DNA of 64,000 nt from an uncultured Candidatus Saccharibacteria bacterium. Lineage in GTDB: Bacteria; Patescibacteriota; Saccharimonadia; CAILAD01; BJGX01. Positions 32,649 to 38,153 of this stretch are shown piece by piece. The first letter of the stretch is position 1. Each line of letters starts with the position of its first letter. The translations under genes were made by a program, and so were the position numbers. Under the pieces are notes generated by a model. It was given only the letters and a program-made list of their open reading frames with translations, did not search any database and had not been told where the DNA came from. The stretch lies in NCBI GenBank assembly GCA_964610335.1, contig CAZSVP010000001.1, positions 287,442 to 351,441 of the forward strand, written 5' to 3'.

Positions 32649-32723
32649 TGGTGCCCCCGCTCCGATTCGAACGGAGATCTACTCCTTAGGAGGGAATTGT
32701 TCTATCCATTGAACTACGGGGAC
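32649..32723 (-). tRNA. tRNA-Arg (anticodon CCT)
   Basis: Hand-folded cloverleaf: acceptor GTCCCCG/CGGGGGC, D stem gttc/gaac, anticodon stem attcc/ggagt with loop ctCCTaa, T arm ccgttcgaatcgg, encoded CCA. Confidence 0.8.
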
Positions 32724-32833
32724 GTAACGGCTATTATACCTTTTGCCTCCTATCTTGACAACAGATAACATTGGTTGTATAGTTTGAGGTCCTATTCGCG
32801 ACCTTTTGGTCATGTACCTATTGGAGGTGGGCC

Positions 32834-33283
32834 ATGCCCATCTGTTACTTCTGTGGTCTGGTGGACCGCGCCAGTGGAGCCAGCAAGTGTCCGAGCTGCG
32901 AGAACAGCTACAGCAGCCGTCCTGGTGATGAAGCCGCCGGCCCGATCAGCATCGAGCCACAAGCGACCATCCAGTTGCCGCCGCATCTCTACGAGGTGCG
33001 CTACAACGAGGGTGGACGAGATATGGCTCAGGTCATCGTCGAGGCATCATCGACCCAGCAGGCACGACATCGCGTCTTCTGTTGGCGCAAGAACGAGACC
33101 GGCGTGTTCCTGGACTTGGCCGGCAATCGCATGAGGTTCCTCAGTGGTGATGCCCAGCGCATTCAGCTCAAGAACAACATCACGGCACGCAAGTACCGTG
33201 GTGGACCGGTCACGAGCTACATCACCGAGTCGCCGACCGAGAAGGGCAAGATGATCGTGGTGGAGCTGGCCACCGTCAGCTAG
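32834..33283 (+). CDS. Hypothetical protein with N-terminal zinc ribbon, high-GC (putative horizontally acquired)
   Basis: CYFC…CPSC ribbon at the N-terminus, 149 aa. GC is far above the flanking tRNA/MazG region. Sits immediately beside tRNA-Arg. Confidence 0.4.
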   Translation: MPICYFCGLVDRASGASKCPSCENSYSSRPGDEAAGPISIEPQATIQLPPHLYEVRYNEGGRDMAQVIVEASSTQQARHRVFCWRKNETGVFLDLAGNRMRFLSGDAQRIQLKNNITARKYRGGPVTSYITESPTEKGKMIVVELATVS

Positions 33284-33394
33284 ATCAAGCAATGGCCGTC
33301 GAATGGATCCCGTCTCAGTTTCACTAGCTAGTGATTACTGGGGCGGGTTTCCTGTTTATAGCCGAAATTATTGAGATAGGCTAGAATAAGAGTT

Positions 33395-35362: not shown

Positions 35363-35593
35363 ATGGTAGCCATACTAGAGAGCGAAGGTCATGGCAGGGT
35401 AGCAGATCTGCTGCTTTTGCTAGAGCAGTGTTGTAGCGGATGCGATCTGGCATTTGTGGAGAGTGATCTTTACGAAGGTGTCTACGATCGTGTCTTCCGT
35501 CGCAGCTATGTTATCCATCCGGATTGTTGGGAGCTCCTTCTCAACCGTGTCAAAAGGAGTAACTATGGACGAGATCTTTCCTGGCAGCGTTAA
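35363..35593 (+). CDS. Small hypothetical protein (76 aa), first gene of the high-GC island
   Basis: Good RBS (aaaggagtc) 6 nt before the ATG. Overlaps the AlkB-like gene start. Confidence 0.3.
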   Translation: MVAILESEGHGRVADLLLLLEQCCSGCDLAFVESDLYEGVYDRVFRRSYVIHPDCWELLLNRVKRSNYGRDLSWQR

Positions 35594-36227
35594 CTTCGAT
35601 GCTTTACTGAGGCAAGTGTCACTTACAGGAGGGGCGTTTGAGCCCCACGCTATGAGCCGTGGGGCGATCAGAGCAGTATTGACGGAGTTTGAACAGCTAG
35701 AGTTTACTCGGTACAGGCGTGGCCCTGAGTGGCCAGTGAGGGAGTGTTACGAGGTAGTTAGAGCACGTCATCACGAGCGAGCCGACATGCCAGTGCTTAC
35801 ATCTATTGGCGATGAACTGGGCTGGCAAGCAAGGTTGCCGTCTATACGTGGCCTAAACAACAGGCTTTGGTACCCCAACTATGTAAATGTGTTGCGGTAC
35901 TATGCTGAGAGTGAAGATGTCATCAGTGTTCATCGTGACTTTAGCTACGATCACTATTTGATCGGAGTGCTGACAGTTGAGGGTTATACGGAGTTCGCCT
36001 TTCATGGTGAGTCAGTAGTAGACGATCCAGTTATCTGGCAGCTTGGCCCTGGTAGTTTGGTGTTAATGCGCGGAACTGGCCTGGATAGTAGTGGCGTTCG
36101 GCCCTATCATGAGCCCAAACCGCCCAAGCAGGGTAGGCGTACGGCGCTGGTATATCGCATGGATATACGCTTACTTGAGCAAGTAGAGGCTCAATTAGCA
36201 GATTCTGGTGGCGCATATGACGACTGA
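35565..36227 (+). CDS. AlkB-like Fe(II)/2-oxoglutarate-dependent dioxygenase (putative nucleic-acid demethylase), high-GC
   Basis: Start after RBS aaaaggagt. Motifs in AlkB order: HRD (HxD), FHGES (second His), GSLVLMRGTG (cf. AlkB GDVVVWGG), RTALVYRMD (cf. RYNLTFR). Confidence 0.5.
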   Translation: MDEIFPGSVNFDALLRQVSLTGGAFEPHAMSRGAIRAVLTEFEQLEFTRYRRGPEWPVRECYEVVRARHHERADMPVLTSIGDELGWQARLPSIRGLNNRLWYPNYVNVLRYYAESEDVISVHRDFSYDHYLIGVLTVEGYTEFAFHGESVVDDPVIWQLGPGSLVLMRGTGLDSSGVRPYHEPKPPKQGRRTALVYRMDIRLLEQVEAQLADSGGAYDD

Positions 36228-36236
36228 AATGGACGA

Positions 36237-36270
36237 GGTCCCGTCCCGGTAATGAAACTGGGACGGGACC
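36237..36270. terminator. GC-rich palindromic hairpin (ggtcccgtccc-ggtaatgaaact-gggacgggacc), no T-tract
   Basis: 11-bp perfect inverted repeat between the convergent AlkB-like gene (+) and a small minus-strand ORF. Shares the GACGGGAC arm motif with the hairpin at 12187. Confidence 0.35.
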
Positions 36271-36301
36271 TTGGACCTTGAGAAGCAACCAAAACCGCTG
36301 T

Positions 36302-36496
36302 TCAGACTTGATTGCTATGGATGGATCGGCTGCGAGCGAGCTTGATGAGCTTGCTCATGAGGTTGGGGTGTTCGATCTCGAGCCGTACGCTCACTCGCTT
36401 GTTCTTGCTGAGCTCGTCGCGAGCGGTACCGATCACGAAGTGTATGGGGTGCGGCACATCCCACCACGCCTTGCGAACAAATTGAATTGCAGCCAT
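36302..36496 (-). CDS. Small hypothetical protein (64 aa), cassette 1 of the minus-strand array
   Basis: Preceded on the minus strand by the junction motif GGCGTTTGTCG, an AT-rich promoter-like stretch and gaaagga before the ATG. The overlapping + strand ORF 36278-36529 is the alternative reading. Confidence 0.25.
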   Translation of the reverse strand: MAAIQFVRKAWWDVPHPIHFVIGTARDELSKNKRVSVRLEIEHPNLMSKLIKLARSRSIHSNQV

Positions 36497-36632
36497 CTTG
36501 GGTATCCTTTCGTTGGCTACCGATTTTAGGTCTGGCCGGAGTATAACCTATAACGTTTTGATAGTAAACAGTATATATACGACAAACGCCCCTAAGCGGG
36601 GCGCCGGTCGAGGCACAGCCTAAGGGCGGGAA

Positions 36633-37088
36633 CTAGGGGACGATCACGTCGGCACGGGTCAAGATGTGCCGAACTCCCTCGAGACGTGCCACCTCATCGG
36701 TGGCCTTACGATCTTCCAACTGGGCAAGTCTCTCGGGTCGTAGCCGATCGTAGATGTCGGCCAGGCGGACCTTGCCTCCCGATGGATCAGCGGCAGCGCG
36801 AGTGGCGGCTTGCTCGAGGGTTTCACCCTCTGTACGAGTCACTGACAGAAGCGTTCCGATCAGTGGTGCGCTCCAGCCCAACTCGAGCATCTTCTCAGGG
36901 GTGATGGCACTACGCTCGAAGATGTCGTGGAGCACTCCTGCGGCCTGCACGTTCTCAGGCTCGCCGACGTCGCGCAGTCGTTGCATCACGCGCAGCGGAT
37001 GCAATATGTACGGCTCGTCGAGCAGCGGATCGGACTGACCGTAGTGAGCTTCCATGGCCAGTTTGATAGCATCTTCCAGTGTTGGCAC
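36633..37088 (-). CDS. Small alarmone hydrolase-like HD-domain protein (RelA/SpoT-type (p)ppGpp hydrolase domain only), high-GC
   Basis: AMEAHYGQSDPLLDEPYILHPLRVMQRL…AAGVLHDIFERSAITPEKMLELGWSAPLIGTLLSVTR matches the HD_4/SpoT hydrolase signature (HxGQ…PY..HP…HD..E). 151 aa. Confidence 0.6.
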   Translation of the reverse strand: MPTLEDAIKLAMEAHYGQSDPLLDEPYILHPLRVMQRLRDVGEPENVQAAGVLHDIFERSAITPEKMLELGWSAPLIGTLLSVTRTEGETLEQAATRAAADPSGGKVRLADIYDRLRPERLAQLEDRKATDEVARLEGVRHILTRADVIVP

Positions 37089-37099
37089 TACAACCTCCC

Positions 37100-37130
37100 A
37101 GTTGTGTGTATTTCGGGGTTCGAGGTGGGT
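37100..37130 (-). promoter_or_regulatory. AT-rich sigma70-like promoter driving the HD gene (minus strand: TTGACA-N17-TAGTAT region)
   Basis: Minus-strand reading …cgtcttgacaacactagcaataatgttagtatagtaccc…. Embedded in otherwise GC-rich DNA. Confidence 0.35.
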
Positions 37131-37258
37131 ACTATACTAACATTATTGCTAGTGTTGTCAAGACGTAGCTAATTCGATTAGTTAAAACGAGAAACGCCCC
37201 GCAGGGCACGAGCAGTCGTAGTATGACTGTTTCTCGACGCCGCGAGGCGCGTTCGGGA

Positions 37259-37669
37259 TCAATTCGGATCCCAGCTACGGATGTATGTGCCGCAATTGGC
37301 ACAGTGGACGTCGGCCTCGCGCAGCACTTTGTTGAAGTTGCGCATGGTGGTGTCACTGCTGCCACAGCTCGGGCAGTGGTTGCGAGCCTTGTAAGCTGCC
37401 AGATATGGGCCGATGCAGTCGGTGCAGTACAGCGCGCTGCAGGGGCCGGTCGCACGGTTCTGGTCGGTGATTGGCTGGTAGCAGTGCTGGCAGTGGTCGC
37501 GCGCGGTCTTGGTGGGGTCGTCGATGCGGAAGAGAAGCACGATGCCACCGGAGCCGTGGTAGGCATGTGCACCGTCGGAGTGGGCTTCGCGGTCGCAGCT
37601 CCAGATGCCATCTTCGCCAAGGGCCTGGCCGCACAGCTTGGTTGCAACAGGGTGAGTCGTGATTGGCAT
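37259..37669 (-). CDS. Cysteine-rich (multi zinc-ribbon) hypothetical protein, high-GC
   Basis: Start at MPITTHP after RBS ggaggcagcc. Multiple CxxC pairs (CQHC, CTDC, CPSC, CANC). Own promoter (ttgcac-N17-cataat) on the minus strand. Confidence 0.4.
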   Translation of the reverse strand: MPITTHPVATKLCGQALGEDGIWSCDREAHSDGAHAYHGSGGIVLLFRIDDPTKTARDHCQHCYQPITDQNRATGPCSALYCTDCIGPYLAAYKARNHCPSCGSSDTTMRNFNKVLREADVHCANCGTYIRSWDPN

Positions 37670-37922
37670 GGCTGCCTCCAGTACGTTTCGGACAATAGAC
37701 TCAAAGCGCATTATGGCACTTCGTGGCTGGATTGTGCAAACATAGCCTTATAGATGATAAACGAGAAACGCCTTCTTGAGAGCGACAGTATACTTCGCGA
37801 CTTTTTTGCCTGCTTAGGCGGCCTCGATCCGGATAGCGGCATATTGCTTTGCATCTGCCTAACCGGCTTCGCCGGTTTAATTAGAACAAACTCTAACATA
37901 GAAAAAACCCCACTTGTGTGAG

Positions 37923-37999
37923 GTTCTTTCTATGGCGGGCCCGACCGGATTTGAACCGGCGATCTCCTCCGTGACAGGGAGGCGTGTTAGGCCACTACA
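37923..37999 (-). tRNA. tRNA-Asp (anticodon GTC)
   Basis: Hand-folded: acceptor GGGCCCG/CGGGCCC, anticodon stem cctcc/ggagg with loop ctGTCac, T arm ccggttcaaatccgg, encoded CCA. AT-rich host-like flanks. Minus-strand terminator hairpins at 37860-37920. Confidence 0.85.
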
Positions 38000-38153
38000 C
38001 CACGGGCCCTCGTCCAAATAAGAATTTTTAACCTGGTTATTTTACCAAAAAACTGGTTTTTGATCAATCACTACTTTGACCTCAAGCCAATCTTTGCGCT
38101 ACAGTATGGTTACTGTTCGCATTCTTCACAAGTTCGACAGAGAGGAGCAGCAC

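Follow-up and report, generated by a model that had tools for sequence, protein, structure and literature searches.

A stretch of 64,000 nucleotides (nt) from the chromosome of an uncultured Candidatus Saccharibacteria bacterium (contig CAZSVP010000001.1; the whole stretch is called the window below) carries, on the 3' side of a tRNA-Asp gene, a head-to-tail array of small GC-rich genes separated by a repeated junction motif. This locus is probably a hyperplastic islet that is built of moron-like units and placed at a tRNA-Asp hot spot, with terminator/promoter junctions of the kind seen in PeSLs. Morons are independent transcription units of HK97/HK022-type phages (Cumby, Davidson & Maxwell 2012, PMC3594210), and PeSLs are the promoter-early/stem-loop cassettes of T4-type phages (Arbiol et al. 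2010, PMC2839356; Comeau et al. 2014, PMC4122927). The slot of the islet would reach from the tRNA-Asp gene and its trailing partial copies to a conserved block made up of an HD hydrolase gene, a gene for an ORFan of 64 amino acids (aa) and a convergent 220-aa gene. The islet would consist of autonomous transcription units with a single gene, or occasionally two, each provided with a sigma-70-type promoter, a Shine-Dalgarno sequence, a small GC-rich gene (mostly an ORFan) and a Rho-independent terminator. The terminator would insulate a unit from its neighbour and the next promoter would restart transcription. Whole units would be gained, lost and replaced between strains by recombination in the terminator/promoter spacers, in the manner of the PeSL junctions of T4-type phages, and the first position of the slot would probably be fed by site-specific insertion at the 3' end of tRNA-Asp.

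In the window the array has three genes, all on the minus strand: a Cys-rich ORFan of 136 aa (37259-37669), the HD hydrolase of 151 aa (36633-37088) and the 64-aa ORFan (36302-36496). The 136-aa and 64-aa products match genes called in public assemblies. The Cys-rich gene occupies the first position of the slot, where other strains have a gene for a 142-aa protein instead, and the 64-aa gene always adjoins the HD gene. The junctions upstream of the three genes are called J1, J2 and J3 in this order. A first-pass annotation of the window had reported three open reading frames (ORFs) on this strand with three copies of a motif and had likened them to a cassette array, integron-like or made by serial site-specific insertions. 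The ORFs and motif copies are indeed there, the motif occurs nowhere else in the 64 kb, and a comparison of strains shows that the units behave as exchangeable modules.

Contigs of sibling strains, collected from many samples by exact-protein look-up, show five gene sets between flanks that are colinear in every case and 95-99.8% identical. Read from the first position of the slot, layout A (the window, L001 and L003) has the Cys-rich, HD and 64-aa genes. Layout B (L002, L087, L091 and L092) has genes of 142 aa, 82 (88) plus 133 aa and 144 aa, then HD and 64 aa; layout C (L086, L088 and L090) has the Cys-rich gene, 82 plus 133 aa, 144 aa, HD and 64 aa; layout D (L085) has 142 aa, 88 plus 133 aa, 168 aa, HD and 64 aa; and layout E (L229) has the Cys-rich gene, 144 aa, HD and 64 aa.

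The end points of these exchanges can be mapped closely. Between the window and L002 the HD-64-aa segment is 99.8% identical over 907 nt, and nothing is common to the two from tRNA-Asp to the -10 element of the HD promoter. When layout A is compared with layouts C and E, homology stops exactly after GGGGCGTTTCTCGTTT at J2 and restarts just past the HD -10 element, the gap being filled by a 50-nt promoter segment private to the window. Layouts B and C differ by alternative segments that begin where a partial tRNA copy ends and extend to the 82-aa gene's start codon, and layout E differs from C by a deletion that runs from the -35 element of one promoter to a point upstream of the next promoter. 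Every end point that was mapped is intergenic; one coincides with the end of the motif, and the rest are found at a -35 element, a -10 element or a start codon. We also tried to derive the window layout from that of L086 by a single motif-by-motif deletion. This derivation fails because L086 has no motif before the HD gene and because the 50-nt promoter segment is private to the window.

The junction motif itself, GGCGTTTSTCGTWT or GGCGTTT(C/G)TCGT(T/A)T, matches exactly three times in the window, even when one mismatch is allowed, against 0.06 matches expected, and none of 100 shuffles of the 64 kb reaches three. All three copies are direct repeats on the minus strand: GGCGTTTCTCGTTT at J1 (37759-37772), GGCGTTTCTCGTTT again at J2 (37185-37198) and GGCGTTTGTCGTAT at J3 (36577-36590). 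The positions first reported for them, 36578, 37183 and 37758, point to real sites but are 1-2 nt off. An alignment of the three junctions, which had been suggested as a way to define an attC-like site, does give a shared segment of 14-17 nt, GG(GG)CGTTT(C/G)TCGT(T/A)T (GGGGCGTTTSTCGTWT), but the flanks cannot be aligned and no attC architecture appears.

Two of the three copies are parts of hairpins. At J2 and J3 the motif opens with 4-6 nt (GGGGCG) that form the 3' arm of a hairpin, and the remainder of the motif is an interrupted T-tract, TTTCTCGTTTT or TTTGTCGTAT. The long GC-rich terminator hairpin 3' of the Cys-rich gene (J2; 37194-37250, minus strand) folds with -34.8 kcal/mol (z = -3.57) and is also matched by a terminator scan, and the two-tier GC terminator hairpin 3' of the HD gene (J3; 36587-36628, minus strand) folds with -27.8 kcal/mol (z = -2.84). 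The mark of an intrinsic terminator, a stable GC hairpin that runs directly into a U-rich tract where a gene ends, is therefore present at J2 and J3 and not at J1. The earlier description of a GC hairpin abutting each following motif was right about the hairpins at J2 and J3, whose 3' arms, however, include the first nucleotides of the motif, and it does not hold for J1, where no significant hairpin is found (RNA fold z = -0.49) and where the upstream neighbour is a partial tRNA copy and not a gene. J1 also differs among strains (GGCG..., CGCG..., GGCC...), whereas J2 and J3 are constant. Because it has no hairpin and varies among strains, unlike J2 and J3, J1 is probably a relic, an orphan terminator tail.

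Our preferred reading of the motif, GGGGCGTTT(C/G)TCGT(T/A)T, is that it represents the descending arm and the interrupted U-tract of related intrinsic (Rho-independent) terminators, and we consider this reading likely, if not firmly so. By a rough estimate, the chance that three adjacent terminators would acquire an identical tail by convergence is p ~ 1e-6, even when the T-rich composition is allowed for, and since convergence on the exact tail is this unlikely the three terminators are probably related by descent. The host-type terminators in the window, after the PpiC gene and after the tRNA genes, have long uninterrupted T runs, and in this sense the terminators of the array have a dialect of their own. 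Intrinsic terminators of the rrnB T1 type also have an interrupted U-tract. The tails of the array are like these in that a GC stem ending in GGGGCG is followed by the interrupted tract, and the same form occurs after ordinary genes in unrelated bacteria; they are unlike ordinary terminators of this type in that a near-identical tail is attached to unrelated neighbours and that J3 is invariant, including its loop.

In the other strains, the terminator of the 142-aa gene has the motif (GGGGCGTTTCTCGTAT) although the gene is unrelated to those of the window, and the order of hairpin, T-tract, -35 and -10 elements and Shine-Dalgarno sequence that is seen at J2 and J3 recurs in L002 behind the 142-aa gene. 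Different hairpins, without the motif, end the 133-aa and 144-aa units, and the motif is missing from about half of the units of sibling strains. The statement that every cassette has the motif is thus true for the window and not for the array generally, because of the 133-aa and 144-aa units.

A search for the combination of hairpin arm and tail, CGCCCC-N3-6-GGGGCGTTTSTCGT, gave 5 matches in viral contigs and at least 120 in metagenome contigs. Among those inspected, nearly all were single-copy, on unrelated and mostly high-GC contigs, and the number of matches is roughly that expected by chance in GC-rich DNA, where a rough estimate gives tens. The longest match, 22 nt in L175, belongs to an unrelated bacterium, where it is an ordinary terminator with housekeeping genes on both sides. 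The only inspected match that proved to be a relative of the locus was L211, which has the same junction sequence as the HD terminator of the related species L005. A metagenome search for the motif, one of the checks proposed at the outset, therefore does find the hairpin and tail widely, but as single-copy, unrelated matches in chance-like numbers these do not make the motif the signature of a widespread cassette family.

The terminator at J3 stands out by its conservation. Its closing segment, GGCGCCCCGCTTAGGGGCGTTTGTCGT (36577-36605, minus strand), which takes in the motif, is identical at 27 of 27 positions in the window, L005, L229, L230 and L231, and the surrounding intergenic DNA has diverged. 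The 5' partner of this segment varies (CGCCCUUAGGC, CGCUCCUAGGC, CACCCCUAGGC) and, by changes between G-C and G-U pairs, stays complementary to the loop and the 3' arm. The constraint on J3 exceeds what a plain terminator needs, and an alternative long-range pairing in which the loop takes part may account for some of it.

Each motif is separated from the following start codon by a promoter-like site of the sigma-70 type and then a GGAGG-type ribosome-binding site, as the first-pass annotation had it. The sites, identified by consensus match only, are TGCACA-17-CATAAT with a TG extension for the Cys-rich gene (37738-37710, minus strand), TTGACA-16-TAGTAT with TG for the HD gene (37161-37134, minus strand) and TTTACT-17-TATACT for the 64-aa gene (36568-36540, minus strand). 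The spacer and -10 region of the HD promoter in the window are unlike the version found in other strains and species. From these arrangements we infer that the hairpins terminate transcription and that the promoters fire.

The genes of the units also differ from their surroundings in composition. Their GC content at third codon positions (GC3) is 0.66-0.77, with 0.77 for the Cys-rich gene and 0.71 for the 64-aa gene, as compared with 0.40-0.48 for the flanking genes for PpiC, NDK, GidA and others. Family, cluster and defence searches leave most of the cargo as ORFans. The 64-, 142-, 82-, 133-, 144-, 168-, 220-, 147- and 132-aa proteins have no match in Pfam, PHROG or NCBIfam, and PADLOC finds no defence-system match for any cargo gene. 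Among 5.8 billion proteins the only cluster homologous to the Cys-rich protein is its own; it has weak, sub-threshold matches to zinc ribbons, including prophage proteins of the Lar, ECs_2282 and YnfU type, and one weak match to a PHROG of unknown function (E = 0.006). We also infer that the units are of foreign origin and that they moved by the recombination route proposed above.

The HD protein is better connected. It is a stand-alone protein of the RelA/SpoT hydrolase type that matches Pfam HD_4 below the cut-off and PHROG 990, a phage phosphohydrolase family, with E = 2.8e-24. Most of its 2032 homologues carry the annotation (p)ppGpp synthase/HD hydrolase, and among solved structures 7smg, a 149-aa (p)ppApp hydrolase, is the nearest (E = 1.6e-15). 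Judged by these similarities, it is possibly a small alarmone hydrolase-like protein that is fixed beside a variable slot in an episymbiont. A scan of metagenomes with the HD protein gave no confirmed locus.

The setting of the array is a chromosome with genes for GidA, NDK, PpiC, RNase P RNA and tRNAs, and the closest relatives of the PpiC-type isomerase beside the array, 63-80% identical, come from metagenome-assembled genomes of Candidatus Saccharibacteria. Related genomes share the order tRNA-Arg, PpiC, variable stretch, tRNA-Asp, variable stretch, tRNA-Thr. In L014 the site is nearly empty, with 70 nt from PpiC to tRNA-Asp and tRNA-Thr about 600 nt further on; in the window the same two intervals measure 2.9 and 2.3 kb. 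Comparing the gene order in related strains, as had been proposed, shows that the content varies and that in a related species the HD gene follows tRNA-Asp directly. Specifically, in the nearest species, L005, tRNA-Asp is followed at once by the HD gene, behind which come the same terminator, an ORF like the 64-aa gene and the convergent gene of 220/263 aa, and this array has no Cys-rich gene. Because the same block is found in L005, we take the HD gene, J3, the 64-aa gene and the 220-aa gene to be the fixed part of the locus, and the slot proper to be what remains, from tRNA-Asp to the HD promoter. Orthologues of the HD protein occur in L005, L230 and L231, and the gene is kept beside tRNA-Asp in related species. 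The 220-aa gene (35565-36227, plus strand) is the fixed boundary of the array and is kept in all strains and in related species; it shares with the 64-aa unit the strong hairpin that ends the latter (36236-36271, minus strand; an inverted repeat with fold z = -4.73). An inverted match of 36230-36244 to the 5' end of the tRNA was treated as chance. Species also differ in which way tRNA-Asp points with respect to PpiC and HD: in L230 (290-370) the tRNA and HD genes are divergent, and in L009-L013 and L015 the tRNA gene is on the plus strand. These differences suggest repeated inversions at the tRNA-Asp hot spot.

The other end of the slot is formed by tRNA-Asp itself and by copies of its 3' half. 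The tRNA-Asp gene (anticodon GTC; 37933-38009, minus strand) was found by ARAGORN and scores 66.2 bits with the Rfam tRNA model. It is followed by a terminator hairpin of the host style with a long T run (an inverted repeat at 37897-37934, minus strand) and then by a partial copy of its 3' half (AAACCGGCGAAGCCGGTTAGG...GCCGCTATCCGGATCGAGGCCGCC; 37817-37878, minus strand; 62.4 bits with a covariance model), in which a long hairpin replaces the T-loop. The slot starts directly after this copy, and both alternative first units, the Cys-rich and the 142-aa unit, begin right after such a copy. The window and L002 have one copy each, L086 has two and L229 three, whereas L005 has none. Tandem copies of a tRNA 3' end are what site-specific insertion at a tRNA gene usually leaves. 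Each copy unit opens with a tRNA-type terminator hairpin, and one copy unit of L086 is precisely absent from the window, its boundaries being copies of the tRNA end. The short repeat units are bounded by copies, whereas gene units have a copy on the tRNA side only. A degenerate tRNA-Asp 3' end, TATCGGATCGGCTCCCCA, is present in the leader of the 142-aa gene (L002 340-357; L085 about 5309-5326), 31 nt before the start codon. Further possible degenerate copies in the leaders of the 82-aa, HD and 64-aa genes were judged too weak to count.

The partial copies recur, and their design is constant: the 5' strand of the T-stem, TT, an AGC-hairpin-GCGCT in place of the CAA of the loop, the 3' strand of the T-stem and the 3' strand of the acceptor stem. 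The tRNA-Pro gene of the window (59002-59077) is followed by two copies of the same design (59143-59206 and 59218-59269, both plus strand). Elsewhere, copies lie in L086 (84-154 and 210-271), L229 (4385-4455 and 4509-4565), L013 (11668-11737), L009 (3117-3186 and 3245-3299), L011 (6521-6580), L012 (20881-20938) and L010 (12784-12852). The copies fall into two subtypes whose order is fixed, and copies of the short subtype from the window and L011 are about 90% identical, although the PpiC proteins of the two are only 63% identical. A covariance model built from eight copies found new copies right after tRNA-Asp in five other species (32-64 bits). In the alignment, 94.6% of the cells pair, compared with 84.6% after shuffling (none of 500 shuffles reaches the observed value) and 18-42% when the partners are slid, and all three inner pairs show compensatory changes; the T-stem changes from C-G to A-U in the copies derived from tRNA-Pro. 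These counts were made on an alignment fitted to the model and for this reason lean towards structure. A search of 36200-38100 against Rfam (E <= 1) found only the tRNA. As conserved, structured hairpins shared by several Saccharibacteria species, the partial copies may be the newer finding. A different kind of duplication is seen in L008 (11485-11753, plus strand), where three tandem copies carry the 5' end of tRNA-Thr (GCCACCTTAGCTCAGTTGGTA) at a spacing of 111-128 nt; the last GCCACCTTAGCTCAGTTGGTA copy is the start of the tRNA-Thr gene.

The main rival explanation, possible though unlikely, is that the array arose by serial integrase-mediated insertion at the 3' end of tRNA-Asp, with tandem accretion followed by decay. 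Each unit would then be the remnant or cargo of a small integrative element, the terminator motif would be part of its conserved backbone, and the tRNA 3' end (ATCCGGTCGGGCCCGCCA), not the motif, would be the recombination core. Tandem accretion with decayed, integrase-less cis-mobilizable elements (CIMEs) has been described for tRNA islands (review PMC5704250; Pavlovic et al. 2004 cited there), and the array is like them in lying directly 3' of a tRNA end, in having one to three tandem copies of that end in strain-variable number and in lacking integration genes. The precise absence of an L086 copy unit from the window, the start of both first units after a copy and the degenerate copy in the 142-aa leader also speak for this explanation, as do the trailing copies of tRNA-Pro and a second unit in L008 that is preceded by a terminator, GGCGAAGCCGGTT... 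and a truncated ATCCGGTC block. However, at 0.1-0.9 kb the units are very small, the gene units are not bounded by a distal att copy, and no tRNA-end copy is found between the Cys-rich and HD genes, between the HD and 64-aa genes or at the distal end of the array. Across species the copies keep their sequence, order and structure, which is unlike simple scars left to decay independently. The only tyrosine recombinase in the window is of the Xer type and 10 kb off, no integrase is among the larger ORFs that were tested from the variable regions of L005, L008 and L009, and two attP patterns with the tRNA-half element have no match in viral contigs. A more far-reaching possibility is that the units form an undescribed family of integrase-less, single-gene mobile units beside tRNA genes. 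Their docking sites would be the tRNA 3'-half mimics, which, with a covarying hairpin between the T-stem strands, would act as structured att-type sites or as small RNAs and would be served by a recombinase in trans; the shared terminator GGGGCGTTTSTCGT would be the backbone of the units, and the array would be an analogue of an integron that is anchored to a tRNA and has its own promoters. This possibility we regard as rather improbable.

The first-pass annotation had named integron-like arrays as one likeness and had raised a possible attC-like site. In such a dedicated cassette system the 14-nt motif would be the crossover core, and cassettes excised as circles would be reinserted by a recombinase acting in trans. 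There are similarities: small unrelated genes stand head to tail with strain-variable content, direct repeats of a hairpin-bearing junction bracket single genes, J1 lacks a hairpin as attI would, one of the strain breakpoints coincides exactly with the motif's end, and the J3 hairpin and motif are invariant across species, loop included. We nevertheless find this explanation very unlikely. The motif is the end of a terminator, and most breakpoints lie outside it, in promoter spacers and at start codons. The window has no integron integrase and no attC-like site, that is, no GTTRRRY core and no imperfect palindrome of 60-140 nt of the attC type, with its R''/L''/L'/R' boxes. The Xer-type protein (25980-26891), the only tyrosine recombinase of the window, sits in a conserved housekeeping neighbourhood, has its best matches with XerD/XerC and scores 153 bits with the integron integrase model TIGR02249, against a cut-off of 265. 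Every unit has its own predicted promoter, whereas integron cassettes are mostly promoterless and expressed from a common Pc; the 82+133-aa and 144-aa units of sibling strains lack the motif, as does the position before HD in other layouts, so the window layout cannot be derived motif by motif; and the metagenome matches to the hairpin and tail that were inspected are, with the one exception given above, unrelated. In the pdif/Xer modules of Acinetobacter plasmids, 28-bp XerC/XerD sites (11-6-11) alternate in orientation. The copies of the motif are all direct repeats, unlike pdif sites, and the junction alignment contains no 11-6-11 dif-like site. It is highly improbable that the array is an ordinary, vertically inherited cluster with look-alike terminators and no modular exchange. 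The joint conservation of the HD, 64-aa and 220-aa genes and J3 in related species and the generic terminator form of the motif would agree with it, but the five layouts among near-identical strains contradict it for the Cys-rich unit and the slot, and the GC3 shift of about 0.25 and the exact tail STCGTWT after GGGGCGTTT on three terminators (the estimate of p ~ 1e-6 above) tell against it as well. We give the least credence of all to the idea that the motif is a shared operator or UP-like element through which one DNA-binding protein co-regulates the three promoters. The motif does lie upstream of each promoter, and at J3 sequence beyond structure is conserved across species. However, the distance from motif to the next -35 element is variable (about 8, 19 and 22 nt), which disfavours an operator with fixed geometry, the motif overlaps a hairpin arm, the 144-aa and HD promoters of other strains lack it, and family searches show no regulator gene in the array.

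This leaves the islet of moron-like units as our preferred account, and its resemblance to phage systems can be stated more exactly. The units are like morons in that each is a single small gene with a predicted promoter and terminator of its own, a deviant GC content, a patchy distribution among relatives and mostly unknown function. They differ in that morons are defined in phages and prophages, whereas these units are part of a bacterial chromosome in which no phage genes or integrase can be recognised nearby, and they are arrayed head to tail in one slot beside a tRNA gene. The likeness to PeSLs is in the junctions, where a terminator hairpin and a sigma-70 promoter flank ORFans in a hyperplastic region, where the end points of insertions, deletions and replacements between close relatives fall, and where the transcription signals travel with the gene. 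In PeSLs the similarity spans about 100 bp, including the promoter; here the shared part is 14-17 nt of the terminator tail, and the consensus hexamers are all that the promoters have in common. The hairpin here lies upstream of the promoter and not within it, and the host is a bacterial chromosome and not a T4-type phage.

Several results weigh against this account. The promoter and terminator calls are predictions from consensus or folding energy, and the 10-kb region as a whole has no significant excess of promoter-like sites (18 compared with 11.2 +/- 4.0 expected). Scans of viral contigs with the Cys-rich, HD, 142-aa and 144-aa proteins found no close relatives. Within about 8-10 kb of the array there are no genes for phage structure or replication or for an integrase, and no distal att copy was found at the locus. 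The HD and 64-aa units are kept across species and yet are GC-rich, so that a simple recent import fits them poorly. Finally, the 27 nt of J3 are identical, loop included, in five lineages in which the HD proteins are only 70-83% identical.

Similar units occur elsewhere in the window and in related genomes. A Cys-rich ORFan of 149 aa (32834-33283, GC3 0.77) beside tRNA-Arg (32649-32723, minus strand) forms a second moron-like unit (32755-33365, plus strand) with a strong promoter, TTGACA-17-TATAGT, and a terminator. The gene is replaced in L229, and the gene length at this position differs in some other strains; the 149-aa protein has no match in NCBIfam or PADLOC. The 5' arm of its terminator, CCCGTCTCAGTTTCACTA (33309-33326), is identical at 16 of 18 positions to the corresponding arm of the 64-aa unit (36250-36267), where no such match is expected by chance. 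A third strain-variable spot within 8 kb holds a 132-aa ORFan (39378-39776, minus strand, GC3 0.74-0.75): the segment 39306-39840, with this gene and its upstream region, is present in L229 and absent in L085, which has about 83 nt instead. In L008, a more distant Saccharibacteria species, two consecutive unrelated small GC-rich genes near tRNA-Asp, for proteins of 178 and 130 aa without similarity to each other, share a terminator of 50 nt with 88% identity (8110-8159 and 9044-9093, minus strand). The L008 pair and the matching arms of the 64-aa and 149-aa units indicate that related terminators on unrelated cargo recur in this clade. Outside the island, patches of raised GC3 (0.63-0.64) at 5446-6084 (plus strand) and 11494-12201 may be further imported genes.

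The locus belongs to known kinds, being a tRNA-linked variable islet of moron- or PeSL-like units, in an unusual host. Most of the remaining novelty lies in the conserved tRNA-half hairpin elements beside the slot, which are the part most deserving of dedicated study. For annotation the array also offers a caution, as repeated junction motifs between small genes may be terminator tails and not recombination sites. Saccharibacteria and other members of the Candidate Phyla Radiation have tiny genomes, in which the gain and loss of genes are little understood. Here, small GC-rich ORFans turn over combinatorially at the strain level in slots linked to tRNA genes, with each ORFan packaged with a predicted promoter and terminator, as in a phage-like (moron/PeSL) flux of genes through the chromosome of an episymbiont. 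One member is fixed and resembles a (p)ppApp/(p)ppGpp hydrolase, a hint that genes for conflict or stress accumulate in the slot.

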